Under the pieces are notes generated by a model. That model did no database searches. It had not been told where the DNA came from and was given only the letters and a program-made list of their open reading frames with translations. The position numbers were made by a program, and so were the translations under genes. Of a stretch of 64,000 nucleotides of DNA, positions 492 to 46,184 are shown piece after piece. This DNA comes from Tubulanus polymorphus (Eukaryota; Animalia; Nemertea), in assembly GCF_964204645.1 (NCBI RefSeq), contig NC_134025.1, forward strand, positions 14,942,001 through 15,006,000. Reading direction: 5' to 3'. The first letter of the stretch is position 1, and each line of letters begins with the position of its first letter.

Positions 492-3400
492 TTAACCATA
501 AGGTAATGTTTTTATTCCATCACCCAAAATATATCTTATATCATCGAAATGATTTAAACTAGTTTTTTCAACTTCATTAATGTACATTTCGTGATCTTCT
601 GATCTTAAACAATTCATTTAATGTTTCATTACAATTGAGATATATAAACACTTTATATAATCTTGAAATTCTATATGTTTATCAACCACATGTTTTGTTA
701 TTCCTTTTAACTTTTTAGCTGCATGATCTTTTGTTCTATAACTATACGTTTTACTTCTTATCCCAACAAATTCAATCATTTCATCAATTCATCTTTAAAC
801 TTACCAGGAATCTTTTTATTATCATTGCTAAATAGTTCATGATCTTTGGGATAATTGCTAAAATCAAAATGATGTTTTAATGTTTTTAAGTCTTTTGTTA
901 TGTCATTTGTCTTGATTTTTAGTATGTACGCGTCAGTATTTTTTTGGATTAATGGGAACCCAGAATTGAATGTTCCATCATCTGTTGATAAATCATAAAC
1001 ATAGTCAGTTGGGTTATATATTTCAAATAAATCTCTGACATCTTCTGTTAATTCTTTTTCTACATGCCTTAAGTTAAAACAATTTGGTTTAGATTTAATT
1101 AATTCTATATTCATATTAAATCCTAATGAATTACATAATATATACAATCCTGATATAGCAACATTTCCTTTTTGCGCAAATGTTATTACTCGAGATCTCG
1201 TATATTTTTTCTGTCCATCTGCTGCGTAGAATCCAATGAAGAACCATTTGCTAAAATTATATTTGGCATTTAATACATAATCTGGCACTATCTTTTCTTT
1301 TGTTGAAGTATTACTTTTCACTATTGCATGAATATAGAATTCGTCATTATATTTTATAGCAAAATCTTTAGGATTATTCACAAGTATTCTATAAACGGCT
1401 GATGATTTCATAACATCCATGATTCTAAATGTTTTATTTGAATTAACTTCTTCACAGTATTTCTTTATTCTTTTTAATAATTTCAAATCTTGATTGCATA
1501 AATACCAACAATATTTATTACCCCAAACATAATTATACACACCTGCTGAACCATCGCCCATGAAAAATCCTTTGATAAAATATTCTTTTTCTTCTAATGT
1601 TTCAGGTTCTATATTATAAATATTATCAATTATTTCATCAAATGACATATGATTCATTCTTTGGAAAAATCGTTTATGTAATAATTCATCCCCAATTTTC
1701 AGTTGGTTTTATTTCATCGCCATTTCGTTTAATTAAACTATGATCTTCTGTAACATCAACAAATCCTAATTTAGTTCTAACTCTATAAATCTTTTTATTT
1801 GTTTTATGCCTAATAATATTCTTTCCATCCATTTCTTGTCCAAACATCCATTAATCCATTTATTTGTATTAATTCTTTTTCAACATATGAAATATAACGT
1901 TCATTTTGTTTTGGAATTATTTCTGAAATTCTTCTTATCAATATTTTATCATTACATTTTAATAATATTGGGGTGTCAGCTGTTACAGAATCAAAATATA
2001 ATATTTCAATATGATTTTCCCCAAAAAGTGGTTGTAAAACATTGTATTAAAAATCATACATTAATAACTTTGATACTTCTAAAACAGTTGAACCAATGAA
2101 TATAGGTTTATTAAATTTCATTGACGTTCTTTTTAATTTTACCGCGGTTAAATAATCTTCAAATCTTTTATTTCCTAAATGTCTAGGACTTGATTGTAAA
2201 TGTCTTAATCTTTCGGAATTATTTACTAATTCAATATCATTTCTATTTCTAATATTTTCACATGTTTTACCATAAAAACTATTATTCATTAATTTGAAGA
2301 AATCTTTTTCAAAATCTGTTTTTGATATGGTTATCTGTTGTGTATCAAAATCTATATATTTTTCTAACCACTTCGATTGATTAAATTCAATATATCTATG
2401 TACTTTCTTTAATTTCATTCCTTGTTTTAGATACAATTTTAACATTCTATAATGACCAATATAATTGTATTTATTATTTTGAGTTAGTATTAATTTTTCT
2501 GTAAAAACATGATCTTTCGGTTTTATTTTCTTCTGGTATTCACTTAGATAACTATCATCTACAGCTAAATGTTAAGGGCAATAAGGTAAATTTCTTGTTT
2601 TAAACTTTATGTTATCAGGATATTCCAAATCAACTACAAAGAAATAACCAATTGGTACTTCATCTTTTAAACTCGTAATTGCGCTTTCCCAATCAGTTTT
2701 ATCATCTTTTTCAACTTCAGTTAATATAAAATTTTTGTATGGTTGAGGTTGCATCATTGCCCAACCATATAAATTATTGGCGTCAATATATAATAATTTA
2801 TATTCATCATTTGCTTTAAAATGTCTATCTCCCATAACACCACTAATTCCACCTCTAATTGATTTTTCAAATAATAAAACCATGTCTGGTTCTTTTAATA
2901 AATCTAACTCTACGTTAGTATATTTCAAACCACATTGTCAGGTTAAACCAGGACTAGAGTAGCAATAACAAGGATCAACATTAAAATGATTCAAATTAAC
3001 TTCTCCAAATTTTTCAAATATGTCAGCCAATATCATAACATCTGATTTCAAGTAAAGATCAACTAATTCACCATGATTTTCTACCTTAAAATGATTCCAA
3101 AAATGTAATGTTCTATTAAAAACTTCATCTTTCACATACTCCTCTTTTAATTGATCATAAAATTGTTCTTTTAATAATTCTGTTACATTAAAATCATCAT
3201 GTGTTTTATAAAATGAATCAGGAATTGCGCCTTTAAATCTCAATAATTTAAAATCTTGTTCATTTTGGTAATAATGTCGAGTTATTATAAAATCATTATC
3301 AACTAAACTTTTTGCTAAATTATCTAATGAACTTGCTAGAAATCTATAAGAATCTAAAAATCTAATGCAACCAAATTGAAATGAAATATAATTTTCAGAT

Positions 3401-5536
3401 GTTTTAGCTAATAGTTTAAAATCATATTTTCTTACATTTGCTTCATTCATAGCATTATATTCTTCTATTTCTTGATTAATTGCGCCCAATTTTCCTGATG
3501 ATTGTTTTATAAATAGATGGGCATCGTAGCCCGATAAATTATGAAATAATATTGGCACGAAATTAACTTTCTTAGCTTGTAAATTACATTCTTCATGAGC
3601 AGCTCCACGATATTTTGAATTTAAATGATCATGATCTCTAACTTTTTTATCAAATGAATAAAAACGTTTTTCACAATAACAACAATGAATTGCATAATTA
3701 AAATCAATTTCATCTTCTTTTGTCATAACCATTCTTTTATTTTTGTTTAATAATTTTGCAAAATCACTTTCTATTTCAATTATTTTGTTACAAAAATCAT
3801 TAACTACATCTTCACCTCTAAGAGAAATATATTGACTTTCATATAATTCAGGATAATTTGATTTTATGTAAATTCCATAAGCAGCAGCTCTTTGATGATT
3901 TTTTTTAATTGTGTTTATAATTGGTGGATCTTGAATTATGTCTTCATTTAATTCATTTCCTTTATCCATTGATTTCAAAAATTGCTTTTTATTGTATATT
4001 TCTTTTCTATCTTGATCAGTTAATTCTTTATTCAACGATTCAAAATCCCCATAAATTACAAATGGAACAATATTTTTAAATTTATGATTAGTAATTTTCA
4101 ACTTACAATCTTTTTTTGTTGGTATTATTAATTTACAAAAATCTTTATTATCACATAATTCTTTATGTTTTAATAATGTATTCTCAGTCATAAATTTAGA
4201 TAAACATTTTCTACATAGATAAATTTTATGATGATGATCACTTTCTGTTCTAAAGAATAAATCAATTTGTTTTAACCACATATAATGTTCATTATCATCT
4301 TTTTTGTAATATAACAAATCTATAGCATTTTCATCATCATAATATTCTGTTAAATATAAAGCTTCTAATGTATAATCTTTAATATTTTCACCTTTTGTCT
4401 TTGATAATTGCATTAATTCAAATACATTTATTTTTAAATTATTAACTTGTTCTATTTTAGGAATCATCTTTATAGTTACTGGATATTGATCAATTTTATA
4501 TAATGTTTCATATCTCCGTATTTTGTTATTCTAAATCTATGCGTAATATCTTCTGTTGGGTGTAAGCAACTAATAATTGACCATAGAAAACATTTATTAT
4601 CTTCATTTTGAACATTTATTACTGCTTTTGTTGTAAATGGTAATTTGATATAACTTGATGCTTTAATATCCTTTTCTGTTGTAAAGTTTGAATCATTTTT
4701 AAACATTGTTTTACTTTTTGATGTTTTATTCATTTTTGTATTATAAACATTTAAATCTAAAAATATAATTTCATTCAATGTTAAACCAGAACCCTCAAAA
4801 TATCTTTCTTCAATATGACGTTTAAATTCATTAAATATTTTTTCTAACTTCTCTTTTATTTGTGTTTTTGAAATTATTTCTTCAGAGAGTGTTTGAATAT
4901 TATAATCAATTTTCTCTTCTGACTTCATAAAACTTACTTTCCCAGAGATACTAATTTTTGGATATTCAACATCTGTTATCAAATCTAGTATTTTTCCCAT
5001 TATTTCATTAAATTTACTATAATCTTCTATTGTTGTACCTTTAAAAAATCTAAATATAATGGTTTCAGGACCAATTTTACAATGTAATGTTTCTAAAATT
5101 TCAATTGTATCTTTTATTTCTAGTGAATCGATATAATTTCTAACATTTTCCATGTAAGGTTTATTTGAAATGGATTTAGTTTTTGAAGTTGGTTTTTTAC
5201 TTTTTGAGGTTTATCATTGAAATAATCTATTCCTAAAACATTATTACTCAAATTTTGATGGTGTTTTTGTGATTTGGTATGTCTTTCATAATTCCTTTTT
5301 ACTATAAATTCATTACAAACTTCACATTTTATTTCATCAACATTCATATTTTCTAATTGTTCCTTTCTTTCATTGGAATTTTCTGGTGTTTCAAAATCTA
5401 TAACATTTTTTATATGATTTGCAGTTTTTTCATGTCGTGTTTTATTAGATTTATCGACGTATTTTTTACAATATGTGCAATATTATTGATTTTCATTAAC
5501 ATAAATTTGTTTTGTGTGTTGTTCACTCTCTCCCAT
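492..5536 (-). pseudogene. polB: Protein-primed family B DNA polymerase (pPolB-A), intein-containing, with frameshifts and stops
   Basis: Start MGESEQ at 5536; two C2H2 fingers; INVQNEDNKCFLW; ExoI YGDFES; FHNLSGYDAHL; RFLDSYRFL; motif A YIDANNLYGWAM; motif B KLMNNSFYGKT; motif C YFD|TD split by an intein; C-terminus ...KTLPYG* at 492. Confidence 0.93.
938..1989 (-). mobile_element. Intein with LAGLIDADG homing endonuclease inserted in pPolB motif C (YFD|TD)
   Basis: Block A SVTADTPILLK directly after YFD; block B GFVDVTEDHSL; LAGLIDADG motifs FIKGFFMGDGS and FFIGFYAADGQ; block F YVYDLSTDDGTF; C-terminal IQKN followed by +1 Thr (TDAY). Absent from the paralogous pPolB-B. The N-terminal part has about 4 frameshifts. 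Confidence 0.93.
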
Positions 5537-5698
5537 TTATAAGAAAAAAAATTACTTGATGATGGTGATGAGAGGTGTCTCCTCCTCTCGTCCTCTGGTC
5601 TGAAAGCCCACTTTTCCAATTACTTGTCATAAAATAGAAGAAATCAATAATGAAATAGAAAGATTAAATTCAAATAGATCAAAAGATAAAATACCAAA

Positions 5699-5824
5699 AT
5701 AGAAAAAGTATTGAAAACAAAAACTCTTAAAGGAAAAAAGTATTCTTTCGTGAAATATAAAGGATACGATGATAAATTTAATGAATGGATTTTATCTAGT
5801 AAAATTAAAAGAATAAATGAATAA
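5699..5824 (+). pseudogene. C-terminal chromodomain remnant of a Polinton retroviral-like integrase
   Basis: Translates IEKVLKTKTLKGKKYSFVKYKGYDDKFNEWILSSKIKRINE*, a chromodomain pattern (VKxKGY...xW), directly upstream of the ATPase. No DDE core is present. Confidence 0.75.
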
Positions 5825-6427
5825 AGATTTATTTATATTTGAACCGCATAATATGTTAGTTACTGGAGTAACAAACTGTGGTAAAACACATTTCATATTA
5901 AACTTGTTAGAAACTATTTATAAGAATCATTTTGATAATATAATATTATTCTGTCCTACTTATGAAATGAATAAAACATATAATAGAGATATAGTTGAGA
6001 TAAAAAAGTTTATTATATTAGATCCTAAACAGTAAAAGAAAATTTAGATAATTGTATAAAAATAGCATAAGATATTTATAAAAGTTCAAATACATTATTC
6101 ATTATAGATAATTGCGCTAATTTACATGATTCTAAAGTTAGAGAAAGTGAGTTATGTTATCTAGCTTTCTCTGGGAGACATTTCGGGATAACAACATGGG
6201 TTTTAAATCAAAAATATAATTCAATTGTTAAAGATTTTAGGGAGAATATAAGATTTCTAGTTTTATTCTACAATAAAGATAGAAAATCTATGCAACAATC
6301 ATTGGAAGAAAATCAAATTATACCTACCGAGTTACATGATGAATATATGAATAAATTAAAGAATAATAAAGGTTCAAAATTATTACTGAGGCTTCAATTT
6401 CCATATGAATATAAGTTTATAAAATAA
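5817..6427 (+). pseudogene. A32/FtsK-like DNA packaging ATPase (frameshift near 6030 and an internal stop)
   Basis: Walker A GVTNCGKT; continues in another frame with Walker B TLFIIDNC, SGRHFGI, LNQKY and FRENI to a stop at 6427. Confidence 0.88.
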
Positions 6428-6775
6428 CTATTTATATACCTATGTATTAGATACCCTATTAGATACCCTATTAGATACCCTAATACCTACCTATGTATTA
6501 GATACCCTATTAGATACCCTAATACCTAAAACCCTTTTTTATTAACTATTATTATATACAATTTTCAACCAATTTATTTTTATTTTTTCAACTAATATAT
6601 GAATAAATTAAAGAATAATAAAGGTTCAAAATTATTACTTAGGCTTCGATTTCCCTATGAATATAAATTTATAAAATAACTATTTATATACCTATGTATT
6701 AGATACCCTATTAGATACCCTAATACCTAAAACCCTTTTTTTATTAACTTTTATTTTATACAATTTTCAACCAAT
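6342..6775 (+). repeat. Local tandem duplication of the ATPase 3' end plus downstream region, with internal 12-bp TATTAGATACCC repeats
   Basis: AATATATGAATAAATTAAAGAATAATAAAGGTTC occurs at ~6342 and ~6594; the two copies differ in number of TATTAGATACCC units. Confidence 0.85.
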
Positions 6776-6779
6776 ATTA

Positions 6780-7605
6780 TTATTTGAGATAAAAATCACT
6801 ATCTGAATCACTTTCATCCCTAGGCCTTAACAATCTATTCAATTTCTCTACCGTATCTTCTTCAAATGCTTCATTGTAATCCTTTTTCATCCTATTTACC
6901 GAATCTTTATCAATAGTTTTTTTATTTTTATACTTATTCTTCCTCCTTTCTAGCATATCATCAATAGTTTCTACTTTATCTTTCGTCAAAAGTGTGTCCA
7001 CATAATCTTTATTATCAATATGCTTATCTGTAACTATATTTTCATTATCATCTTTCTTAGTGTTTGCTCCAAATATTTCATTTACAATGTTTGATCCTAA
7101 TATTTTATTAGCATCGGTTAAATCTAATTCATCTTTATTAGGTGTTGCTAATAATAAATCTTCATATAATTCTTTACCATTTACTTTTTTATTTGAAACA
7201 AACTTTGTAACATATCTAAATGGGTGTTCTATAAATTCTCTTATACCAACACGTTCTATAACATTAGTAATATGTACCTTTGTATTCATATGTTTATTCC
7301 AATTTGATGGAGCGTTTGAAAATTCACCTTTACAATAATCACAATAATTTCTATTTTCACTAATATTTAATATTAATTCATTATTAGATGTAGAAGGTAT
7401 TACATTATTAGATGTAGAAGGTATTACATTATTAGATGTAGAAGGTATTACATTATTAGATGTAGAAGGTATTACATTATTATCAATTACATTACATAGG
7501 ATAAAATATCAAAGCTATATTACAAGGTATTACATAATATAAGCCATCATTATTTTCATGTGTATCGATGTATGGAATATGTTTATATACTTTACCTCCT
7601 TCCAT
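6780..7605 (-). pseudogene. C2H2 zinc-finger protein with NNVIPSTS repeats (disrupted near 7490)
   Basis: ATAAATG start at 7605; the frame upstream of ORF 6780-7289 is open and reads (NNVIPSTS)x4...YCDYCKGEFSNAPSNWNKHMNTKVH. Confidence 0.6.
7381..7476. repeat. 24-bp perfect tandem repeat x4 (in-frame coding repeat)
   Basis: TTATTAGATGTAGAAGGTATTACA repeated four times. Confidence 0.95.
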
Positions 7606-7654
7606 TTATTATATAAATTTTTATTAAAGTTAGAATTTTAATATTTCATAACAC

Positions 7655-8892
7655 TTAAAACATAATACTCTCTAATTGTGAATTTACAATATTTAATTGC
7701 GCGTCAGATATAATATAAACGCGCATTTTGAAATTTAAACTTCCTTTTTTCTTTTTCATGAATAATTGTATTCCATCTTTAGTATTTTGTAGTTTTTTTC
7801 CAGAACCATGTAATGAATTATCCTCTGTTGTTCTAAAATCTAACCATAATGCATATTTATTACCGGTATAATAATCAATTTGATTAATATTAAAATTTTC
7901 AAATGATTTTACTTTTTCATTCATAAAATGTTTTCTAATTTCTGGCCATTGATCTATCATTCTCATTCCTTGACGACATATTTTATTTGCTATTCCTTCG
8001 ATAGTTATTTCTACTTTTGATATTTCAGGATTATAATAATTATCAACTTTTATTGCACCATTAGAATATGTTGGTAAAAAATATTAATATACCTTTAATA
8101 GATCTTCTTTGGTAGTTAATATTCTCATTAATTATTTCATCATTTGCATTAATAGTTACAGTTTTAAATTTTTCAATATAATCATATAATAATGAAAATC
8201 CTTGGTTGTATTGAGTTTGAATTATGCTAGCAATATTTTCATCAGTTACTGTATCATATTCCAAACATATATTCGATAATTCATAACCCATATCTTTATT
8301 AACGCTAGATAATACAATTTCATTAACAGGAGCAAATGTTATTTCGAATATAACATCTTCTTGAATTGCGTATATATATAAAATTATTATTTATCAATTC
8401 AAAATCTAATGGAATTTTATATTTGCTTCCATAAATCTTTTTTATCAAATTATCTACAGCATTAGTTACTACTGCGTTATTGGCTTCAGATCTTAATTTA
8501 TTTTGGTTTTCTGATTGGATGCCTTGAAATATCATATTATTTCTATTTTCTTTTGTTAACCATAAATCTTTATAATGCATAAATAAATTATAATTATCTA
8601 ATGAGAAAACTGTTTCTGGCCCAATCTTTACAGCTAATTTTTTAATCAAATATCTCCCAACATTATCAACAACATAATTATTATCATGACCAGTTACTTT
8701 CATATCAGCTGATAAATAGATACTATTTGGAACATAAAAAGTATTTTGTGTTAATCGAGGGATTCTAACATATAAAGTTTCATCGGGATTAATATTAGAA
8801 GGATTATGAGTAATTATATGATGTGATCTTTCTGCTTTAATAGCATTAGATATTCTAGAATTCTTAGAAGGACTTATGTAACTTCCGCTCAT
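7655..8892 (-). pseudogene. Double jelly-roll major capsid protein, split into three ORFs
   Basis: About 410 codons; HNPSNINPDETLYVRIP, NVGRYLIKK, YKDLWL, YELSNICLEYDTV and KYALWLDFRTTEDNSLHGSG resemble invertebrate Polinton/adintovirus MCPs (recognised from memory); position in the element fits. Confidence 0.72.
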
Positions 8893-10426
8893 TTATTTAA
8901 CAAAAAAATTATTTTTTTTTCTATCATATTCACTAACCCAAAAATAATTGCACTTACAACTGTAATTACAAATAAAATAATATGTTCAGCAGCAAAGTTA
9001 AGAATATTCCCAGCAGCGTTCAATATAAAACCAACAATTGATGCAATAACTCCAGGTAAAGCTGCGGCAGATTTTTTAGATAGTTCCCATAAATATTTTG
9101 CTAATTTTTTTAAACCATCCTTAACTTTTTCTTGTATAGAATTATTATCATTCGGGGGTTTATCTGGTTTATTTGGAGTAGGAGTAGATTTCAATGAATT
9201 TGATATAGCTAAACCTATTGTTGTGAATACCATAGTTACAGCTGTTAGAATTGAAAGAATTGTTATACCTTCTAACTTAAATAATAATTTTATTCTATCT
9301 TTCAATGATATTTTAGAATCTGGTTTTATTATTAAATCTTTAAAAATAACTTTTAATTTTTTAATATGATTAAGATCATATGATTTTAATAATATATCTC
9401 TTTCTTTTTCCTGAAATTCTTTGTTATATTTTAAATCATCAATTTCTTTTTCTAAAGATGACTTTCTGCTTTCATAATCAGCTTCCTCTATTACTTGAAG
9501 ATCTCTATTTAATTCTAATTGTTTTAATTCTTCATTTGCATTAGTTAATTCTTTTTCTAACATGGTTATTTTAGAAAATCTCATCTTAATATTAGCAATT
9601 TCACCAGCTGATTCTTGCATACCTTTAATTTCTCTACGTGCTTGTTCAGGAAATGCTTCTAATTCATCATCAGTTAAATCAAGTAATCCTTTTTCTAATA
9701 GATGTTGTATTTGATTTGTTCCAGTACGAGATGTATCTAAAGTACTATTCATCTCTTCTTCTGAATCTCTTAATCTATCAATTTGTTTTTCTAATACTAA
9801 TTGTAATTGACTTGAATCATTATCAATTTGTTGAATATCTCTTCTCGTTGTTTCTGGTGTTGAAGTTCTTAATTTATCTAATCGATCTCCATACTCTTCC
9901 AAATTCTTTCATATTATCATTTCTTTCTTCTTGTGTAACATCAGTTATTTCATTACTATTACTTACTATTTTAATTCTATCTGGTTCTAATTTTTCCAAA
10001 GTTGATTCTGCTAATATTTTGTTTAGTCTTGTCCTTTGATTAGTGATATCAATATAATAATCACCATCAAAATGATAATAATATTTACCTTTTAAAAGTT
10101 TTAAATCTCCTACTAAACATTCGGCATCTCTATAATTTATATTATACCCAGATCTTTCAAATACAGGTTTGAATTTATAAATATCTTCATTATAATCTAA
10201 TCTCTTTTTTTACTAAATGTGGATTTACATTTTCGGGATTTATTCTCTGTTCATCATTTCTATCAAATTCATCTGTTGATGGGGCTTTAGAACCACTATC
10301 TGCTGGATTAGAATTATACGCTGATTCGTCATCATTATCAATATTAGTTTCATTAAAATCAGGTTGTGGTTCATCACTTATACCGGGGGTGTCACCAAAA
10401 GTATCCATTGGAATATCTTCTTCCAT
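8889..10426 (-). pseudogene. Acidic/coiled-coil protein with C-terminal hydrophobic helices
   Basis: ORFs 10190-10426 and 8889-9902 join by collinearity with the paralog 22643-23920; hydrophobic segments ITILSILTAVTMVFTTIGLAI and AAALPGVIASIVGFIL...IILFVITVVSAIIFGL. Confidence 0.7.
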
Positions 10427-10447
10427 TTATATAATAAAAAATTAAAA

Positions 10448-11759
10448 TTAAAAATATAATATTCCTCCTATAACAATTCCTATACAAGTTAAAGCTAATT
10501 TAGCATTTTCATGGGATTTATTATCATCATTTAGTTTAATTATTTCATGTTGAATATTATCAGTTTTAATATTTTCTGATGTATTGTAATCTTTTATTTT
10601 AGAATCATTATTTAATTTAATATTATTAGTTTTAGTTTCTGTTGATTGAATATGTTTTTTATTTTTTTCACCTTCCATTAATTTTGGAGCAGTAATTATC
10701 TTTTTATATATATCATTTAATCCAAATGAATTATTTATTGTTGCAGTTTTAATTAGATTATTATAACCAATTATATTTCCCATCTTTAATACTAAATCAT
10801 TAGAAATAATTAATAGATTAGGACCTATACAATAATTTAATCTAATATGTGATTTATCTAAGTAATTTTGATATCTTACAATGTTTTCTGGAATCGATCT
10901 ATTTTTATCATTATGAATGGAATCTTCAAATAATACTTTGAATTGTTTCTGCGAATCAAATGAATGTATCATTTCCAACTATTGGTGATCTTGTTGAACT
11001 TGCGCACCTAAAATACATATCAAATAAGTTCTAATTGATTGATTTATTCTTTGTATGCCCGATTTTGTAAAACCTTCACTATTTTCTAAAATAAAATTAA
11101 TCCAACCATTATTATTATCAATTTTATAATTATGATAAGCTCCAATTCTATGCATATAATCAATTCTTTTTATTTCATACTGTTCACCAATACCTTGCAA
11201 TTTACCATGCGCTCTAAAATCGGAATTAATATTTAAAAATAATTAAATTCATAATAATTAAATTCATTACATATTTTATAAAACTTAGATAGATTAATAT
11301 TATTATCCAATTCTTTAAAATATTTAGATCCGGGTAAAGGACATTCTAATTCATTTAATATTATTCTGATTTGAAAATATGTGTGAAATCTAAATATTGT
11401 GTGAATTAATTTTAAATCAGAATATTTCAAATTTTTATCTAAGTTATTTAAATGATCATTCCAAATTATACCACAACCAGTTGTTGCACAATAAACAGCA
11501 AAATTTAATTGATTCTGCCAATATTTCATATTAGATTTTACTTTATATATATGATATTCATCTCGAGTAAAAGTAACTTCATATCTGCTAAATATATTTT
11601 CCATTTTAGAAATAAAAAACTGTGATTCAGTAACATAAATCTCTAAATAAGTTAATGAAATTAAACTGAATTTTTATATGTAATATTTTTAATCAAATCT
11701 ATTGCAGGAATATTATATTTAATTGATTTATTATATTGGAAAGCTTTTGGAAACCCCAT
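10448..11759 (-). pseudogene. Conserved Polinton protein (WQNQLNFAVYCATTGC motif) with C-terminal TM helix
   Basis: Three ORF pieces collinear with the paralog 21303-22626; ends LALTCIGIVIGGILYF. Confidence 0.7.
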
Positions 11760-11775
11760 TTATATAAGTAAAAAA

Positions 11776-12210
11776 TTAATAATTTATTAATTCTTTTAAT
11801 AATTTATCTTGTTCTTCAACTGTAATATTACCATTTAAACTCATTATATAATCTAGTGTATTCTTTAATTTATTAATTTCTTTTATATTAGTTTTAATTT
11901 TTTCTTTATTACTTTATATATTTAATTTTGAACTTATGCCGGTTAATACACTTGATTATAATCCGAACACACCAATTGATATAGCTAAAGGTGTTAATGG
12001 ACTGAATATTGCTAGAAATGTTATTACAGAACTAATTGTAACCGAACCACTGATAATAAGATAATATATAATTTTACTTTTTAAATATTTTTTCTTTTTT
12101 ATCTTTAAGTCACTTTCAAATTCTAATATTTGTTTTTCTAAATATATTTTTAATTTAGTTTTACTGATATCATGATGAATAATATTAACACCATCAACTT
12201 TATCATCCAT
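11776..12210 (-). pseudogene. Small two-TM protein
   Basis: Hydrophobic IIYYLIISGSVTISSVITFLAIFSPLTPLAISIGV; paralog at 20851-21286. Confidence 0.6.
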
Positions 12211-12228
12211 TTATTTAGCAAAAAATTA

Positions 12229-12663
12229 CTAATTAGTAAATTTATAAGCAACAAATATAACTTTAACTGTTCCCCCTAAAATCCAAATTATTCCATATTT
12301 CTTCTGTTCATTACTTGGGGTATAATAATCTGATATTGTAGGTTTATGTAGATGTAATTTTTCTTTATTGGTTACTGCGTTTTATAAACTCATTGCATCA
12401 TCAACTGATTGAAAATCTCTATGTGAAATCTTCTGATTACATAATTCCTTGTTAATATAATCCATATAGTTTTGTCTTTTTTCTCTGTATTCTTCTGCAG
12501 CTTTATTATATTTTTTTTAAATTATATTTATATTTAAGTTATGTCTTTTTTGTTCTGTTAATGAACCATTTTTATCAATATGTATAAATAAATAACCACC
12601 ACCAGTAAATGCTAAAGCGTTAACAATTGCTGATCCTAAAATAGTTATAATTGCAGAAGCCAT
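12229..12663 (-). pseudogene. Small protein with N- and C-terminal hydrophobic segments (not in ORF track)
   Basis: MASAIITILGSAIVNALAFTGGGYLF...; paralog MAPAIITIVGSAIVNALVFTGGG at 20404. Confidence 0.6.
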
Positions 12664-12686
12664 TTATTTAGCAAAAAAATATGCAT

Positions 12687-12908
12687 TTATATGGGAGGAA
12701 TATATTTTTGTTTTTCCAAATAATCAATAGTTAAATTAGATAAAGTAACTGCTAATGTTAATTTTAAAATATCATTAATATCAAATCTATCAACATTAAC
12801 ACTTCCCATTTTAAATACTTTTTTTAATACCATTGTATAACCAACAGTTCCAACTGATAATAATGCTCCATTATATAAACCAGTTATTATCCACTTATTA
12901 TCACTCAT
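12687..12908 (-). CDS. Small hydrophobic protein
   Basis: Intact 73-aa ORF, conserved with 20160-20387. Confidence 0.7.
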   Translation of the reverse strand: MSDNKWIITGLYNGALLSVGTVGYTMVLKKVFKMGSVNVDRFDINDILKLTLAVTLSNLTIDYLEKQKYIPPI

Positions 12909-13252
12909 TTATTTATAAAAAAATTACTATCTTCAAAATATTTAGTTATCTTATTTATGATTAATTCAACATTTATTTCAATACTAGTTTCATTTTCATA
13001 TATTACAGTTATTATTCTTTTAATATCATCAATGATAAAATCTTCATCTAATTCATAAAATCTTAAAGACTCGGTTATCTTTTCTACATAAAAAGTTTCT
13101 TTATCTATTGTTTTTTCATACTCAAATGTTGTTTCATTAGAAAATGCAATATTTTTAATATGTGTTATTACATCATTAATGTTAAATTTCATTTCTTTCT
13201 CATGTTTAAAATCAAATCCAAAACATATACTCGATCCAACAGTTATATTCAT
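12905..13252 (-). CDS. Hypothetical viral protein
   Basis: Intact 115-aa ORF; paralog 19817-20152 shares MNITVGxSICFGFDFKH. Confidence 0.7.
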   Translation of the reverse strand: MNITVGSSICFGFDFKHEKEMKFNINDVITHIKNIAFSNETTFEYEKTIDKETFYVEKITESLRFYELDEDFIIDDIKRIITVIYENETSIEINVELIINKITKYFEDSNFFINK

Positions 13253-13268
13253 TTATAAAGTGAAAAAA

Positions 13269-14026
13269 TTACTCTTTACATCTTATAATTAATTCATAAA
13301 TTATAGGAAAGTTATTCAAATCAATTACATAACCATTATGATTTCTTATTTCTAATTTGAAATTGTTAAATCGTGAAATACAAGGTTTAAAATCAGATTC
13401 AGCTAAATTATAATTAATTTGTGTTCCCAATTTTTTAAAATTTTTTTAATGGTATAATATTTGATATACTAGAATTACAAGTTATATCTTTAGTTGCTTC
13501 GAAATTTTTGTAGCATCAATTAAATTGCAATAAATATAAAAGTGAAAAAAGGCATTATATTTGAATTACCATCTACGTTTCCTGTAACAATATCTGGTGC
13601 AATTCCTAACAATTTAGCTAATGGTTTTCTCACCATAAATGAATGTTGACTTTCATCATGTAACTTTATTTTAATTTTATTTGTGCTATCACTTTTTATA
13701 AATCTAATTAAAAATTTATCTTCACTTCTAATTTTCAACCGTGCTCTTCTATTAATTTCTTGCGCTAGTGTTTCTAAATTATATAATCCTGGTTTTAAAA
13801 TTAGATGAAACCATTTATTTATATTTCTAAAATGAATTAAAAAAATATTATGATCAATAGTTTTACTCGATACATTATAAAAAGAATTACATAAACTTCC
13901 ATTTACTAATTCTAAATCAACACAATTCTTAAATTCTCTATCTAATTGTACTAGTAAATTATGAGATTTATAATTTGTAAGTTTTCTAGAATCAACATGT
14001 ATTCTATATTCTTTTAATTCTACCAT
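13269..14026 (-). pseudogene. Minor capsid (penton, single jelly-roll) protein
   Basis: YRIHVDSR, NSFYNVS, LKPGLYNLETL; after frameshifts ends FNNFKLEIRNHNGYVIDLNNFPIIYELIIRCKE*, a typical penton C-terminus. Confidence 0.7.
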
Positions 14027-14040
14027 TTATTTTACATGTT

Positions 14041-14394
14041 TTATTCGAAATCTATTTCATGGTGGCCTTCTTCATTCTTATCTTTGTATACAAAATAGAA
14101 ATCGCCTGAACATAATTCTTCTAAATCTTCACTTGATAATCTATGAAATCTATCTGGTAAATATGTTCTGAATTTATATGTATTTCCTTCTAATCCTTCA
14201 TATTCTAAGTGTATAACTAATTTATCTCCATATTTGTTAGTAACTGTAACAATATTTGTAATTAGATATTTCTTATGGATTATTAATTCTTTTAACTTCT
14301 TAAATTTATAATCTACTGATTTGACATTTGAAGTATTTTTTATTCTATCTAGAAATAATTTGTTGTTCTCACTGTGTGCTTGTTTACTCTCCAT
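14041..14394 (-). CDS. Small beta-rich protein, possibly OB-fold/ssDNA-binding
   Basis: Intact 117-aa ORF immediately downstream of pPolB-B (FKKLKEL, TNKYGDKLVIHL, YLPDRF); function is inference. Confidence 0.5.
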   Translation of the reverse strand: MESKQAHSENNKLFLDRIKNTSNVKSVDYKFKKLKELIIHKKYLITNIVTVTNKYGDKLVIHLEYEGLEGNTYKFRTYLPDRFHRLSSEDLEELCSGDFYFVYKDKNEEGHHEIDFE

Positions 14395-14423
14395 TTTAAT
14401 AACATATTTTTATTAAAATTTGA

Positions 14424-17400
14424 TTAACACGTTAGAATTCTTTTCATTATCTCCTTCTCTTTTGTTTCTTCTCTTTTGAACTTTAGATATACATCTAAAT
14501 TGCATCCATAAGAAACTGTATGAATTCCATCATCTAAAATATATCCTTTATCATCAAATGGATTCAAACTAACCTTTTCTATCTCTTCAATAAACATTTC
14601 GTGATCTTCTGATATTAAACATTTCATCTTATGTTTTCTAACTTCTTCATTGAATATACAATTGATATAATCTTTGAAATGAATATTCTTTTCTACTACA
14701 CTTTTAGTAATTCCTTTTGTATATATATATAATTCCTTTTAACTTTTTAGTATCATGTTCTTTAGTTTTATATGAATACATTTTAGATCTAATACCAATG
14801 AATTCAATCATTTCTTCACCACCTAATTCATCCTTAAACTTCCCGGGTCGCTTTTTATTATCATTGTTAAACAATTCATGATTTTTAGGATAGTTACTAA
14901 AATCGAAATGATGTTTTAATGTTTTTAAATCATCAGTTATGTTATTAGTTTTTATCTTTAATATGTAACTGTCAGTATCAAAGTATAGAATTTCTATATG
15001 CTTTTCTCCAAAATGAGGTTGTAATACATTATAATAGAATTCATACATCAATAGCTTTGATATTTCTAAAACTGAAGCACCAACATAGATTGGTTTATTA
15101 AATTTCATAGAAGTTCTTCTCATTTTAACTGCAGCTAAATTTTCATCAAATATTCTGTTACCTAAAAACTTAGGATATGATTGTAAATGCCTTATCCTTT
15201 TACCATTACTAACTAACTCAATATCATTTCTATTTCTAATATTTTCACAAGTCTTACCATAGAATGCATTGTTCATTAACTTGAAGAAATCTTTCTCAAA
15301 ATCAGTTTTAGCTTCAGTTCTCTGTTTGGTGTCAAAATCTATATATTTTTCTAACCATTTAGATTGACTGAATGAAATCTATGTACTTTTTTTAGAACCA
15401 TTCCTTGATTCAAATAAAACTTCAACATTCTATAATGTACTACATAATTATATTTATCTTCCTGAGTTACCATTAACTTTTCTGTATGAATATGATTTTC
15501 GGGTTTAATTCTTTTTTGGTAATTTGATAATTCTTCATGAGTTACAGTTTTATGTTCAGGGCAGTATGCTAGATTTCTAGATTTAAATTTAATATGTTCA
15601 GGATATTCTAAATCTACAACAAAGAAGTAACCAATATCTGAATCATCTGCAATATCTAGGATTCTTTTATTCCAATCAAATTTATCATTATTTTCATGTT
15701 GTAAAACTTCACTTATTTCAAATACTCCATAAGGTTGTGGTTCCATCATTGCCCAACCATACAAATTATTTGCATCTATATATAATAACTTATATACAGG
15801 GTTATCATTTACATTGAAATATCTATCCCCTAATACACCTGAAACTCCTCTTATAGATTTTTCAAATAATAATAATTGATCTATATTAGTTAACAAATCC
15901 ATTTTTATATCCGTAAATTTTAATCCACAATCCCAAGTTAAACCTGGGCTAGAATAACAATGGCAATTATCAATATTGAAATATTTTGGGTTTACATCTC
16001 TAAACCTTCCAAATATATCCGATAATAATAATACATCTGATTTTAAATATAAATCTACTAATTGTCCATGATTTTTCATTCCAAAATGATTCCAAATATT
16101 CAATGTTCTATTATATACTTCATCTTTAACATATTCAGTTTTTAATTCATCATAGAATTGTTCTTTCAATAATTCAGTTATATTAAAATAATTATGATTT
16201 TTATAGAAAGAATATGGAATTGCGCCTTTATATCTCATTAATTGGAAATCATCATTATTTGGATAGTTTTGTTTTAATATTTTTAATTCATCATCAACTA
16301 ATGATTTTGAAGTTATCTAATGAACTATTTAAAAATCTATATGAATCTATAAATCTTACGCAACCAAATTGGAATGATATATAATTCTCAGATATTCTAG
16401 CTAACATTTTAAATTTATAAGTTGGTATTTTATCTTTTGATCTATTTGAATTTAATCTTTCTATTTCATTATTAATTTCTTCTATTTTATGGCATAACTG
16501 TTTGATAAATAAATGTGCATCATATCCTGATAGATTATGAAATATAACTGGAAGAAAATTTACTTTTTTGGCTTGTAAATTGCAATTCTCATGCGCAGCG
16601 CCTCTAAACTTTCCATTCAAATGATCATAGTCTCTTACTTTTTTATCTTTATAATTAAATATCTTTTCACAATAATAACATTTACCCGTAAACACAAATG
16701 CTTCTTTATCTTCTTCTGTCATAATTATTTCTTTATTTGTATTCAATAATTTACTAAATCTTATTTCATATTCAATTAATAAGTCACAAAAATGATTGAT
16801 AACATTTTCATTTCTATAATGATAATATTCACTTTCAATTAGTTCTGGATAATCAGATTTAATATATAACCCGAAAGCAGCAGCTGATTGATGAATCTTT
16901 TTAATTGTATTTGTTTTTGGTGGTTCATCTGAAAAATCATTTTCATTAGAATTTAATTTCTTTCTTTTATAATATATTTCTTTTCTATCTTGATCAGTTA
17001 ATTCTTTATTTAATGATTCAAAATCTCCATATATTACAAATGGTACTTTATTTTTGTAATCATATTTTTTGAATTCTAATATTTTATCTTTTTCATTTGG
17101 TAAAACTAATTTACAATAATCATGATTATCACATAATTGTTTATGATTTAATAATGTACTTTTATTACTGAATCTATGTAAACATTTTCTACATATATTT
17201 TACGATGATGATCACTTTCTGTTCTAAAGAATAAATCGATTTGTTTAATCCACACATAATGATTTTCATAATATAACATATCTATAACATCATTTGAATC
17301 ATAATCTTTTGATAGGTATAAAGGTTCTAATGTTAATTGTTTTATATTGTTGCCTTTTGTTTTTGGTAATTTGATTAAATCAAATACATTTATTCTCAAA

Positions 17401-18466
17401 TTATTATCTCTTTCAATTTTGGGATATTTTTAATTCTAACTGGATACTTATCTATCTTATAATTATTTTCAAATGGTTTATAATTTGTTAATCTAAAACT
17501 ATGTGTAATATCTTCTGTTGGATGTAAGCAACTTATAATTGTCCATAGAAAACATTTATCATCAAAATTTTGTACATTTATAACAGCATTAGTTTTAAAT
17601 GGTAGTTTAATATAACTTGATGCTTCAATATCTGGTTCTTTATAATATGATACATTATTTTCATCTATTGGTTTTGATTTAGTTAACTTATTATATTTTG
17701 TGTTATACACATGTAAAGTCATAAATATTATTTCATCAAATATTAAACCTGATCCTTCAAAATATTTCTCTTCTATTTTAGTTTTTACTTCATTATAACA
17801 TTTATCTAATTTATCATCTATATGTTGTTTTGAAATAATATGTTGTGAATGGGAATTCATATTATATATTGGTTTATCTTCAGATTTTATAAATTTAACT
17901 TTTGATGAAATACTTATTTTAGGATATTCAACATCAGTGATTATTTTTATAATATTTTTCATATTTTCTAAATGTTTTTTATTTTCTTCTAATGTTTTTC
18001 CTTTATGAAATTTAAACTCGATAGCTGCTGGGCCAATATCACTTTTAAATGCTTCGGTTATGTCTATATCTTTTTTATTATCTAATGAATTAATATAATT
18101 TCTTACATCTTCCATGTATGGTCTTTTATTGTTTAATTTATTTCTTATTCTTTCAATTGTCTTATGTTTCTTATCATTATCAAAATAATCCTAACCTAAA
18201 ATATCATTATTCTTATTTCTAATATGACTTTTAGATTTTAAATGTTCATTATAATATCTTTTATCACTGAATGATTGATTACATGTATCACATTTGTATA
18301 TTTCTTTTTCATTCTTTAATTCATCTAATTTAGTTTCTAATATATGATCTTCATATTCTAATTTCAATTTATTCTCTAAATGTGTTTTAGTTTTATTGTG
18401 TCTTGATTTTTGGGATTTATCTATATTGATTTTACATGTTGAACAGTAGTACTTATTTGTTTCCAT
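14424..18466 (-). pseudogene. polB: Protein-primed family B DNA polymerase (pPolB-B), intein-free, with several frameshifts
   Basis: Two N-terminal C2H2 fingers, INVQNFDDKCFLW, FHNLSGYDAHL, YIDANNLYGWAM, MNNAFYGKT, uninterrupted YFDTDS, GKFKDE, SLNPFDDK. Confidence 0.93.
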
Positions 18467-18749
18467 TTTAATACTAATTTTTTCTAAAATTGATTTTACA
18501 CATTTTATTCATTTAGAAGTTATTCATTTATATGTTATTCATGTATTATATATATGAATTATTACAATCACACTTTACTCACACTTTTAATGTTTAAAAA
18601 TCTAAATCATACAAATATTTATATTGAAATATGTTTAAAATATATCTATATATCTATTTATAAGAGCTCGACCTCCGACCTCTGATCTAAAAACGCCATT
18701 TACTAATTTTTAACTTAGTTTAACTTTTAACTTAGTAACTAACTTTTAA

Positions 18750-18920
18750 GAGTAATAGGGGAATGTGGCTTTCATATCAAAGGTTGAAAGAGTTAGTGAG
18801 TAAAAAATAACAATAATTAGTCGCGCACACTCCTAATTCAACTGGAAATTATTGTTATTTTCATTTTTACGAGCTCGACCTTTCGACCTTTGGTATGAAA
18901 GCCACATTCCCCTATTACTC
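18750..18920. repeat. Inverted repeat/hairpin at the element B terminus
   Basis: 18750-18790 is the reverse complement of 18880-18920 (41 bp, 2 mismatches); inner arms AAAATAACAATAATT / AATTATTGTTATTTT. Confidence 0.9.
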
Positions 18921-19643
18921 GAAACAATTCTGGAAATTGATAAATTCGCACAGCAATTCTAACATTCCAACTGACAACGTCACCCTTACATCCAATGACT
19001 TTTTTGATCACTTCGCTGACCTAAACGCTCACAATGAGACCGAAGTTTTGGATACGGAAACAGATCTACTTTTAGACGATATAGATGACTCTATGCTTAA
19101 TGCTGAAATAACTATGCTAGAATTAAATAAAGCTATTCCTTCCTTAAAAAACAACAAAGCTACCGGTATGGATCTAATTTGTAATGAAATGATGAAAAAT
19201 TTCGATGATAATTTACGCTCATTCTTTCTTCAACTCTTTAAGATGGTATTGATGAGTGGCATTATCCCAGAAAGCTGGACTATAGGCACTTTTAAACCGA
19301 TATTTAAGAATAAAGCCAATATTGATTGTACGGATAATTATAGAGGTATAACGCTAGTTAGTTGTTTAGGCAAACTTTTTACAAATATCCTTAATAATAG
19401 ATTAACATGTTTTATGAATGTAAATAAACTTTTAAGTGAAAATCAAGCAGGATTTAGAGCGGGGTATTCTACTACCGATCACTATTCCCACTTAAGTCTA
19501 TTGTTGAGCTATACCTTAATCAAGGTAGACATCCTTTCTGTAGTTTCGTAGTCTTCCGCAAGGCCTTTGACTCCGTATGGAGAATTGCTTTATGGAAAAA
19601 GATGATGGCTTTAGGTATAAAAGGTCTCTTTTTTAACACCGTG
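18921..19643 (+). pseudogene. Non-LTR retrotransposon (LINE) ORF2 reverse transcriptase fragment
   Basis: LKNNKATGMDLICNEM, PIFKNK, NYRGITLVSCLGKLF, QAGFRAGYSTTDH and (frameshifted) FRKAFDSVWR. Confidence 0.9.
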
Positions 19644-22600
19644 CATTATGATTTAACAGAATGTGATTTTAAACCTTGCATTTCACAATTTAATAATTTT
19701 AAGTTAGAAATTAAAAATCATAATGGTTACTTAATTGATTTAAATAACTTTCCTGTGGTATATGAATTAGTTGTAAGATGTAACGAATAATTAAAGATTT
19801 TTTAATAATAATAGATATGAATATAACAGTAGGACCGAGTATATGTTTTGGGTTTGATTTTAAACATGGTAAAGAAATGAGAATTAAACTAAATGATGTA
19901 ATTACTGATATTAAACGTAAACCATTTAATAATGCATCAATGATTAATAAAGAAAATTATAATATAGAAAAAGTAACTGATTTAATCAAAACATCTTTAG
20001 AATATTATGAATTAAATGAGGATGGAATTATCGATGATATTAAAAACATATTATCTAAAATATATGATAATCATAAAAGTAGTAATGAAATAAATGTTGA
20101 AATAATTATAACTAAGATAACTAAATATTTTGAAGAAGGTGATTTTTTTTGATAAATCAATGAATGATAATAAGTGGATCATAACTGGTTTATATAATGG
20201 AGCATTACTGTCAGTGGGAATGGTTGGTCATACAATGTTATTGAAGAAAGTATTTAAAATGGGTAATATTAATGTTGATAGATTTGAAATCAATGATATT
20301 TCAAAATTAACATTAGCAGTTACTTTATCTAATTTAACCATTGATTATTTAGAAAAACAAAAATATATTCCTCCTATTAACGCGTAATTTCTTTGTTAAA
20401 TAAATGGCACCTGCAATTATAACTATTGTAGGGTCGGCAATTGTTAACGCTTTAGTATTTACAGGCGGTGGTTATTTATTCAAGCATATTGATAAAAATG
20501 GTTCATTTTCAGAATAAAAAAGACATAACTTAGCGTTAGAAAAATATAATAAAGCAGCAGAAGAATATAGAGAAAAAAGACAAAACTATATGGATTATAT
20601 TAATAAAGAATTATATAACCAAAATATTTCACATAGAGATTTTAAGTCAGTTGATGATGCTATGAGTTTATATAATGCAGTAACAAATCGTGAAAAATTA
20701 CATCTATATAAACCTAAATTATCAGATTATTATACACCAAGCAGTGAACAGAAGAAATATGAAATAATTTGGATTTTAGGTGGAACTGTTATTGTTATAT
20801 TTGTAGCATATAAATTTACACTTAATTATTTATTATTTTTTGTTAAATAAATGGATGATAAAGTTGATAATATTGATATCATTCCTCATGATATAAATAA
20901 AACTAAATTAAAAAAATATTTAGAAAAACAATTATTATAATTAGAAAATGATTTTAAAGTTAATAAGAAAAATATTTAAAAAGTAAAATTATATATTATT
21001 TTATTATTAGTGGTTCAGTTACAATTAGTTCTGTTATAACATTTTTACCAATATTCAGTCCATTAACACCTTTAGCTATATCAATTGGCGTTTTAGCTTT
21101 AAGTTCAAGTGTTTTAACCGGAATAAGTTCAAAATTAAATATAAAAAGTAATAAAGAAAAAATTAAATCAAATAAAAAAGAAATAAATAAATTTAAAAAA
21201 AATACATTAGATTATATATTAAGTTTAAATGGTAATATAACAATTGAAAAGCAGGATAAATTATTAAAAGAATTAATAAATTATTAATTTTTTATTAAAT
21301 AAATGGTAGATAGTTTTCCAAAAGCTTTCCAATATAATAAATCAATTAAATATAATATTCCAGCAATAGATCTTTATAAAAATATCACATATAGAAATGA
21401 AGTTTTAAATTCATTTATTAATTTAGATATTTATGTTACTGAAACTAATAATTTTAATGTTAAATGGAAAATATATTTAATGTATATACAATTAATTTTA
21501 CAAATTTAAATGAGGCATAACAATGGTTATCAAAATCTAATATGAAGTATTGGCAGAACCAATTAAATTTTGCCGTTTATTGCGCAACAACAGGGTGTGC
21601 TATAAGATGGAATGATCATTTAAATAAACAAAGTTTATCATTAATATTATCACTTTTTATATTTCAAACATATTCTCAAATAAAATTAAAATTAAATGAA
21701 TTAGAGTGTCCTTCACCAGGATCTAGATATTCTAAAGAATTAGATAATAATATTAATTTTTCTGAGTTCTATAAAATCTGTAATGAATTTAATATTAATT
21801 CAAATAATTTCAAAGCAAAAATTGGTACAATGGGTGGATTAGGAATATTATATACTAAAGAATTTGGTAAAATGATAACAAATTCGGATTTAAGAACACT
21901 AAATTGGAATGAATTACCAAAATATTATAATAATATACAACAACAAAATAATGATGGATGGATTAATTTCATATTAGAAAATAGTGAAGGTTTTACAAAA
22001 TCAGGCATACAAAGAATAAATCAATCTATTCGAATATATTTAATTTGTATTTTAGGTGCACAAGTTGAAACAATATCACCAATATTTGGGATTAATAATA
22101 CTTCATTTGATGCGCAGAAACAATTCAAAGTATTATTTGAAGATTCTATTCATAATGATAAAAATAGATCGATTCCAGAAAACATTGAAAGATATCAAAA
22201 TTATTTATCAGATAAATCTCATGTAAGATTTAATTATTGCGTAGGTCCTAATTTATCAATCATTTCTGATGATTTAATATTAAAAATGAGAAATATAATT
22301 GGTTATAATAATTTGATTAAAACTGCAATAATAAATAATAAGTTTGGGTTAAATGATATAAATAAAAAAATTATCACTGCTCCAAAATTAATGGAAGGTG
22401 AAAAAATCAAAAAGAATATACAAACAACTGAAATTAAAACTAAGAATATTAAATTAAATAATGGTCCTAAATTAAAAGATTACAATACATCAGAAATATA
22501 AAAACTGATAATATTCAACATGAAATAATTGAAACTAATAATGATAATAAATCACATGAAAATACTTAATTAGCTATAACTTGTATAGGAATTGTAATAG

Positions 22601-23920
22601 GAGGAATATTATATTTCAAATTGTAAATTTTTTATTTTATAAATGGAAGGTGTAGAAGGAATTCCAATGGGAAGACACGGGAAATAATAATGATGGATAT
22701 ATTGATGATGATTATAATGATGTAGGTGTTAATGAAACTAATATTGATAATGATAGAATGAAATATAATTCTAATTTACCAGATAGTGGTTCTAAAGCCC
22801 TGTCAACAGAGGAGTTTGATAGAAGAACTAAATCGAGTATAAATACTGAAAATGAAATTCTAGATTTAGTAAAACAAAATTTAGAATATAGTGAATTTAT
22901 TCATATATTCAAACCTTTATTTGAAAAATCTGGATATAATATAAATGATAGTGGTGCTAGACTTTTAGTAAAAGATTTGAAATTTTTAGATGGTGAATAT
23001 TATTATCGTTTGAAAGATAATTCGGATTATTATATTAATATCACTTATAAAAATCAAAATAGAATATTAGCAGAATCAACTTTGCTTAAGTTAGAACCAT
23101 CTAGAATTAAAAGAATAATTAATAGTAATGAAATCAAAAATGTTACACAAGAATAAAGAAATCAAAATATGCGAGTATTTAAACAAAGATTTGATAAATT
23201 ATTTAAAGCAATCAAAAATAATTTAGAAACAGAAACAACTTCTGAACAGAATACAACTTCCAAAACTAGTAAACTTAAATCGAATAAAGTTCCAAATGAA
23301 AAACTTTTACTTAATGGATTACTTGCAACAGATCAAGAATTAGAAGAATTAGATACATTTTTTGATAATGCAATTAGAGAAATTACTAGTATAAGACTTG
23401 CATCTGTTAAAATTGCACATGATAAAAGTATAAGAGATTTTAAAATTAAAACTTTAGAAAATGAATTAACTGATGCAAATAAAGAATTAAATCAATAAAA
23501 AGTTAGATTTAGAACAACAAGTAATTGATGAAATAGAATATAGACAAAAAGTATTAAGTTTAGAAAAAGCAATTGATAATTTAAAAGATAATTTAGAAGT
23601 ACAGACAGAAGAAATTAAATTTTTATCAAAATCATATGATTATTGTATAAATAGATTAAAAGTTATTATTAAAGAGTTAATAATAAAACCAGTTTCTGAT
23701 ATATCATTGAAAGATAGAATAAAATTACTATTTAAACTAGAAGGTTTAACGATTCTATCAATTCTAACAGCTGTAACTATGGTATTTACAACAATTGGTT
23801 TAGCTATTTCAAATTCTTTAAAATCTAGACCAAATCCTAAACCACCTGATGAACCCCCAAGTCATAATTCTATACAAAATAAAGTTAAAGATGGTTTGAA
23901 AAAATTAGCAAAATATTTAT
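19644..23920 (+). mobile_element. Partial Polinton-like element C: inverted, diverged paralog of the element B structural block
   Basis: Same gene order as 13410->9095: penton 3' end (19644-19790), 19817-20152, 20160-20387, 20404-20850, 20851-21286, 21303-22626, 22643-23920. Truncated before the MCP. Confidence 0.88.
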
Positions 23921-23984
23921 GTTATATATTTATTCATTTATGTTAAATATTTATATTTTTTTTAACTTTAGCAGATATACTAAT

Positions 23985-46100: not shown

Positions 46101-46184
46101 GTCCGAAACAATGTATGCCTCAACACACGACACACACTACATACACTCACACTGTGAGTAGGCCCAGACACGCAGCGTGCCAGT

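Follow-up and report, generated by a model that had tools for sequence, protein, structure and literature searches.

The late promoter of Cafeteria roenbergensis virus (CroV) lies upstream of every gene of mavirus, a virophage that CroV reactivates (PMC6723459), and endogenous mavirus-like clades vary in their promoter motif (10.1101/2025.10.09.676808). In vaccinia virus, late promoters place TAAAT and a following G on the start codon and have a conserved T at the 10th nucleotide (nt) upstream, whereas intermediate promoters have TAAA, lack the 10th-nt T, and are A-rich upstream (PMC11980589). The T core of the late promoters lies 5 to 7 bp from TAAAT(G/A) (PMC5294985), and polymerase slippage at initiators of the TAAAT type gives 5' poly(A) leaders (PMC6211774). 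Polinton-like viruses (PLVs) occur in occlusion bodies of entomopoxviruses and have been proposed to be poxvirus hyperparasites (Barth et al. 2024, PMC11296320). Here we describe the motif TAAATG at the gene starts of Polinton copies from the nemertean Tubulanus polymorphus, contained in a 64-kb window of contig NC_134025.1 (assembly GCF_964204645.1, positions 14,942,001 to 15,006,000), and of their relatives in metagenomes. The vaccinia consensus used for comparison was taken from reviews.

In common with mavirus and the endogenous mavirus-like elements, this lineage combines a DNA polymerase B of the protein-primed type (pPolB), an rve integrase, and a capsid module, is integrated into its host, and has one helper-type late motif before essentially all genes; as among the mavirus-like clades, the motif varies between lineages, here in locus L015. 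It differs from mavirus in that the motif is TAAAT instead of TCTA, the capsid is not of the virophage major capsid protein (MCP) type, no protease was detected, and the host is an animal. The entomopoxvirus associates are also Polinton-like viruses proposed to exploit poxviruses, but, unlike the elements described here, they were found physically in occlusion bodies. Maverick-Polintons, or adintoviruses (Polintoviricetes), share with our lineage pPolB, an rve integrase with a chromodomain, an A32 ATPase, a double-jelly-roll (DJR) capsid, and endogenous copies. In contrast to them, no adenain motif was found in the clade and its capsid misses PF21738, which control Polintons matched strongly; those controls start with AAA-ATG. 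The similarity to vaccinia virus lies in TAAAT(G/A) over the start codon, a T core about 10 nt upstream, G or A at +4, and a subset of A-rich cores that is intermediate-like. The differences are that the motif belongs to a Polinton without a detected RNA polymerase (RNAP), that T peaks at the 9th nt, and that nearly all genes carry the motif. The yeast linear virus-like elements (pGKL) are likewise pPolB elements and have a TAAAN initiator, from which 5' poly(A) leaders arise, but they encode their own RNAP and capping enzyme, neither of which was detected here. Among the matches listed in searches of the open literature, there was no report of a TAAAT motif in animal Polintons. A term search of the accessible main text of PMC11296320 returned no promoter or motif analysis, and the term "promoter" was not found in PMC8502044, PMC11131425, 10.1101/2023.08.22.554363, 10.1101/2024.03.23.586382, 10.64898/2026.06.19.733378, or 10.64898/2026.10.13.758929.

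The start-codon motif is real, is shared across the lineage, and is built like a post-replicative promoter of poxviruses. The original prediction listed 15 ATAAATG sites in the window, all of which we found, and placed the motif at nearly every gene. The second statement also held, with corrections. TAA precedes ATG at 15/20 annotated starts, compared with 64/973 other ATGs (positions 1 to 24400, L1 fragment excluded; Fisher p 1e-13). However, the sites at 20404, 20851, 21303, and 22643 belong to an inverted copy at 81% identity, where they are paralogues of those at 12663, 12210, 11759, and 10426, so only 11 sites are independent, and five starts lack the motif: those at 14394, 18466, and 24284 read TAAAATG, and those at 19817 and 20160 are altered paralogues. 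With paralogues removed, TAA precedes ATG at 11/13 window starts. A count over the whole window, set against shuffled sequence, is barely above background (47 versus 36.3 +/- 5.4, with 47 reached by 5/100 shuffles); it is the position at starts that is strongly enriched. The starts themselves are supported by relatives' proteins, whose alignments begin between residues 1 and 7 at 5817, 8892, 11759, 12210, 12908, 13252, 14026, 20851, and 21303, and by N-termini that resemble relatives by eye at 7605, 10426, 12663, 20404, and 22643; the start at 5536 is putative. The TAA at 5817 comes directly after an integrase remnant, whose stop codon it most likely is. The conserved unit is TAAAT(G), since the preceding A is present at 15/15 window sites and at 62% of those in relatives.

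Relatives were collected with an alignment of the capsid, which retrieved 40 metagenome loci at 30 to 100% identity. We counted homologous gene families in the sense orientation at 20 non-redundant loci, after dropping 6 near-duplicate loci, 8 open reading frames (ORFs) judged to have internal or extended ATG starts, and capsid fragments of decayed loci. TAAATG was present at 72/78 starts and at 133/3341 other ATGs in these loci. Three loci, L015, L020, and L026, were set apart because they were seen to use other motifs (0/14 starts); with them, the count is 72/92. The window start list was compiled after the motif list was known, and the blind test is an uncurated rule applied to the relatives (every ORF of at least 100 amino acids [aa], 19 loci), under which TAAATG stands at 71/83 starts. 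In four further starts of relatives, TAAAT lies 0 to 2 nt ahead of ATG. The motif persists in loci whose capsid identity ranges between 83% and about 34%, and across GC contents of 20% to 44%. It is present in three well-supported capsid clades (a tree of 20 rows, midpoint rooted), on which the motif label shows no significant clustering (55/500 shuffles).

Control elements scored by the same ORF rule behaved differently. TAAATG was found at 16/200 starts in 18 other pPolB elements, or at 9/192 without locus L228. Three controls with classical Polinton capsids have AAA-ATG starts, with TAA at 0/19, 0/17, and 0/13. Among the matches listed, the motif stood at 81/844 starts in viral contigs chosen for one extended motif (15/281 below 30% GC) and at 96/886 starts in loci around related inteins of the type found in nucleocytoplasmic large DNA viruses (NCLDVs). 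L228, which belongs to another Polinton lineage, has TAAATG at 7/8 starts, and the motif therefore extends beyond the main capsid clade; this locus has another type of ATPase and an integrase with an N-terminal extension that looks protease-like by eye. The sister lineage represented by L015 (and its near-copy L016), at 49% GC, is without TAAATG and has TATA within 14 nt of 9/12 starts, compared with 23/403 for all ATGs, those starts included. Its pattern resembles the late initiator of African swine fever virus (ASFV). L020 has TAAAATG at 3/3 starts. In relative L001, a deoxynucleoside kinase (10343-10981; Pfam dNK E 2e-31) lies behind a T-core TAAATG start, and only three other matches to it were found, none indicating a donor.

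We considered whether the motif has a simpler cause. AT content was rejected, as 37/39 starts keep TAAATG in loci at GC of 33% or more. An AAA-ATG Kozak preference was likewise rejected: every TAAATG start has T at -3, an unfavorable Kozak base, and the classical Polintons with AAA-ATG starts have no TAA. The motif thus goes beyond both of the trivial causes named in the original prediction, which had also noted correctly that the TAA is mostly not the upstream stop codon; in relatives, the upstream stop forms the motif in only 3/49 tandem cases. Stop-start coupling was rejected because the triplet before ATG is TAA at 72 starts and TAG or TGA at none (0 and 0 of 78), whereas the real stops are TAA, TAG, and TGA in a ratio of 44/15/12 (TAG and TGA together 27/71). 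A poly(A) signal was rejected, with AATAAA formed at only 25/72 motif starts, and independent copies of AATAAA downstream of stops are at the background level (4/37 versus 182/2368 windows, 7.7%). A TATA box was rejected (upstream 13/75 versus 639/4250), and no other 5-mer was significant. A splice acceptor was dropped by eye, there being no AG after the T-run. A role in translation, whether Kozak-like or through stop-start coupling on polycistronic RNA, or a role as the poly(A) signal of the upstream gene, draws some support from those 25 starts with AATAAA, from a preference for G at +4 (67%), and from the few stop-start adjacencies. We regard it as very improbable in view of the T at -3, the absence of TAG and TGA, the 47/72 starts without AATAAA, and the retention of the motif at 21/22 divergent starts and when it is displaced out of frame.

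The upstream sequence matches the poxvirus pattern further. The T-run that had been reported ahead of the motif is present, spanning -15 to -10, with T at -12 and at -11 in 14/15 window sites. In relatives, T at -12 occurs at 63/71 motif starts and at 36/116 non-start TAAATG sequences, and T reaches 89% at the 9th nt and 74% at the 10th. Thus, both TAAAT(G/A) at the start codon and a T-rich core about 10 nt upstream, as in late promoters, are found. The 10th-nt T is frequent in the capsid (15/16), the 139-aa family (10/11), and the integrase (5/6), and it is scarce in the ATPase (3/10), pPolB (2/5), and the probable penton (1/3). The difference among gene families has a permutation p of 1.5e-4, which is post hoc and uncorrected for relatedness, so we propose only tentatively that promoters with an A-rich core (ATPase, pPolB, probable penton) form an intermediate-like class and those with a T core (capsid, membrane proteins, integrase) a late-like one. 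In divergent gene pairs, TAAATG stands at 21/22 starts. Eight of 11 pairs are at most 30 nt apart, two of them overlapping, and the motif occurs on both sides of gaps of 19 to 30 nt, which would leave no room for host-type promoters with leaders.

The original prediction had drawn attention to TTTTTNT, the poxvirus early terminator. As a cause of the T-run it failed: T at -12 is present at 22/22 divergent starts, which have no co-oriented upstream gene, and the T-run is therefore promoter core and not a T5NT terminator. Intergenic T5NT is not concentrated in tandem gaps (12/49, versus 4/22 divergent gaps). On the coding strand, T5NT is at 0.46 to 0.50 of expectation; sense T5VT is at 0.50, but T5VV is also reduced, to 0.69.

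These observations suggest that these Polintons probably live like virophages, with a poxvirus-type helper transcribing their genes. The T core and TAAAT(G) at nearly every start would be a post-replicative promoter of the poxvirus type, on which the transcription apparatus of a co-infecting helper would act. By analogy with vaccinia virus, RNA synthesis would begin within the AAA, and slippage would add a 5' poly(A) leader that puts an A at -3 of the AUG. On the model of mavirus, integrated copies would remain unexpressed in cells not infected by a pox-like virus; on such infection, the element would be expressed, copied by its pPolB, and packaged, and the rve integrase would return new copies to the genome. 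Like a virophage, the lineage has no RNAP of its own in the ORFs scanned: no Pfam match to RNAP, TBP, TFIIB, or VLTF was found in 32 ORFs of the window or in 18 + 49 ORFs of relatives (except in L015), all on partial contigs, and 23 PHROG queries gave no match to RNAP, TBP, TFIIB, or VLTF. The original prediction of transcription by a large DNA virus is partly supported by the match to the vaccinia late consensus, but no helper genome was found among the loci scanned. Its further argument, that tight packing of intron-less genes is a sign of a helper, does not discriminate, as such packing is a general feature of Polintons.

Several findings weigh against a helper. Among the matches listed, from searches not aimed at poxviruses, 58 loci with NCLDV-type inteins and 80 flanked loci from a motif scan included none that was clearly TAAATG-rich. 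The T peak lies at the 9th and not at vaccinia's 10th nt, avoidance of T5NT is weak and not specific, and the intein described below has its nearest kin in other Polintons. We infer helper dependence, and the transcripts and start sites that go with it are predicted. Host factors, among them TBP and YY1, can reportedly bind such promoters. The copy number appears high, which is difficult to reconcile with strict helper dependence, and repeated germline insertion would be easier for an autonomous element. Several conserved genes have no assigned function, making an element-encoded factor possible, and an ORF at 6543 of L015 has a below-threshold VLTF3-like match (E 6e-4). An autonomous element would use a protein of its own to redirect host RNA polymerase II to TAAAT, with the likeness to poxviruses due to shared ancestry or convergence. 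The copy number favors this somewhat, as do the weak VLTF3-like match in the sister lineage and about eight conserved genes without assigned function. We nevertheless consider it unlikely, because the scanned ORFs gave no match to the transcription proteins listed above (apart from L015), the pPolB genes also carry the motif, so that a cascade would have no early or host-type promoter from which to begin, host-type poly(A) signals are absent after stops, and two predicted folds were uninformative.

If the promoters were instead relics of an earlier dependence on a helper, the endogenous family would spread, or would last have spread, by host read-through transcription. Decay of the window copies, loss of the motif at two paralogous starts, and the high copy number fit this account, but in intact relatives from three deep capsid clades more than 90% of starts still have the motif. 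Since the motif is kept while flanking bases turn over, selection appears to continue in the lineage, and we give the relic account little probability. A host basal initiator, or a helper other than a poxvirus (iridovirus-, asfarvirus-, or nuclear-virus-like), might also read the motif. Ranavirus DNA polymerase promoters are reported to contain TAAAT (PMC5294985), and yeast linear plasmids use TAAAN with a polymerase of their own (PMC6211774). In contrast, the late initiator of ASFV is TATA (PMC7163114), the motifs of mimivirus and CroV differ, and TAAATG is rare at ATGs of the host flank (43/1514, mostly non-genic), so this too seems very unlikely.

The NCLDV-like character of the intein, which had been read as a further sign of a helper, held up only with respect to its site. 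The intein interrupts pPolB at YxD|TDS, the same site as in the polymerase B (PolB) inteins of mimivirus and other NCLDVs. Its closest relatives are in other Polinton pPolBs, at 44 to 60% identity, compared with 38% or less for NCLDV PolBs (among the matches listed). The intein may therefore record past contact with large-virus polymerases and not present dependence. Intein-bearing (938-1989) and intein-free (14704-15378) pPolB alleles coexist in this one genome, and related inteins are found in pPolBs on long contigs (P0039-P0043).

The window copies are decayed, broken relics. Positions 1 to 24.3 kb have 20 to 29% GC, and the remainder is host DNA with repeats at 31 to 46% GC. The AT-rich part is not a single virus but consists of at least four truncated, broken Polinton copies and a fragment of a long interspersed nuclear element (LINE). 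Hallmarks of Polintons in the window are pPolB, an A32 ATPase, the LAGLIDADG intein, a capsid, and an integrase chromodomain remnant. A protein-primed polymerase is indicated by DNA_pol_B_2 in window copy B and in relative L030, the ATPase by Pox_A32, and the DJR capsid by a weak Pfam match and Atlas neighbors. Only the C terminus of the rve integrase remains in the window; full rve and Chromo domains are present in close relatives L001 and L003. The window capsid is 76% identical to intact 415-aa proteins, and its Atlas neighbors include DJR capsid clusters. Capsids of the P0001 type gave no Pfam match to the Sputnik MCP, unlike control L236. No adenain protease motif or Pfam match was found in the ORFs of the clade, an absence that is not final because all contigs are partial. 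Long inverted repeats in the window are paralogous gene copies, and the element copies are truncated and nested, which may obscure any terminal inverted repeats and target site duplications. The capsid gene had a read depth of up to about 870x in a DNA run labeled as the same species (1,934 Mb read, reads over 4600-11700 only), which would correspond to hundreds of element copies if the genome is about 1 Gb, an estimate made without a single-copy control. The capsid family is large, as its profile matches 2,466 cluster representatives. No relatives turned up in viral contigs when these were searched with the capsid of the window, with the alignment of capsids, or with the conserved 442-aa family. 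Predicted folds of the 442-aa family and a 117-aa protein (predicted local distance difference test scores of 48 and 47) were too poor to assign, a viral fold search gave no match at E <=0.001, the 115-aa protein had no Atlas match, and an Rfam scan of the 64-kb window gave no match.

Copy A of pPolB (618-5536, minus strand) has several broken frames and a zinc-finger-like N terminus; over 1986-5160 it matches copy B at 74% identity. It contains the broken LAGLIDADG intein (938-1989, minus; Pfam LAGLIDADG_3 E 2e-6, boundaries from translations), and a T core with TAAATG covers its putative start (5534-5551, minus). On the plus strand follow the integrase C-terminal chromodomain remnant (5696-5816), 80 to 83% identical to the integrase C termini of L003 and L004, relatives with rve and Chromo domains, and the broken A32-like packaging ATPase (5817-6427; TAAATG, A-rich core), assigned by Pox_A32 and relatives' proteins. 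The ATPase 3' end is duplicated, with 12-nt tandem repeats, at 6418-6741, between convergent genes. The genes that follow are on the minus strand. A broken gene of no assigned function that resembles L002 1748 (6780-7605) has TAAATG and an A-rich core. A T core and TAAATG begin the MCP gene (7655-8892, three broken frames; 76% to P0001, Capsid_N weak, Atlas Capsid_N/DJR clusters 0.97), a broken conserved gene with a likely coiled coil and membrane segments by eye (8889-10426), a broken conserved gene with a C-terminal hydrophobic helix (10448-11759), a broken gene with a weak SLATT-like pair of membrane helices (11776-12210; its homologue, L001 2541, matches SLATT at E 0.0013), the broken gene of the conserved 139-aa family (12229-12663), a conserved 73-aa hydrophobic gene (12687-12908), and a 115-aa gene of no assigned function (12905-13252). 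The broken gene at 13269-14026, with TAAATG and an A-rich core, is, from its N-terminal pattern, probably a minor capsid (penton) gene. An A-run and TAAAATG precede both the 117-aa gene (14041-14394), with a low-confidence fold, and the putative start of the intein-free, broken pPolB copy B (14424-18466; DNA_pol_B_2).

An inserted LINE-type reverse transcriptase fragment (18817-19640, plus; RVT_1 E 1e-5) is not the element's own. Copy C, an inverted paralogous copy of the structural cassette (19608-23946, plus), has TAAATG starts at 20404, 20851, 21303, and 22643 and altered starts at 19817 and 20160; within it, 19645-23180 is an inverted copy of 9901-13414 at 81% identity, and copy C also matches 9088-9668 at 78% identity. 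Sequence comparison identified a small fragment D of the pPolB N terminus (23927-24322, minus), with TAAAATG at 24284. The host part contains a repeat family of 154 nt (34.8 to 44.4 kb), an exon-like frame with a CDK inhibitor (CDI) domain (45720-46136), an ISXO2/IS1595-like transposase (49882-50937) flanked by a 146-nt inverted repeat (49484-49629 and 51411-51556), and a direct duplication of about 5.3 kb with 83-nt subrepeats (52138-60906). The CDI frame and the LINE reverse transcriptase fit an animal host.

A fixed promoter of the poxvirus type makes the transcription and autonomy of animal Polintons directly testable. Dependence on a poxvirus-type helper would predict pox-like viruses in hosts in which none was found here. 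A bolder proposal, which we advance tentatively as a possibility, is that a large clade of endogenous animal Polintons consists of provirophages of undiscovered poxvirus-like viruses, with a miniature intermediate/late promoter cascade, and that sister lineages switched helpers, as the asfarvirus-like TATA initiator of L015 would indicate. If so, the start-codon motifs of Polintons would form a record of the giant-virus families that infect each host. The motif also allows Polintons to be grouped rapidly according to their likely helper. High-copy germline elements of this kind might serve as an inducible antiviral defense, like endogenous mavirus in its protist host.

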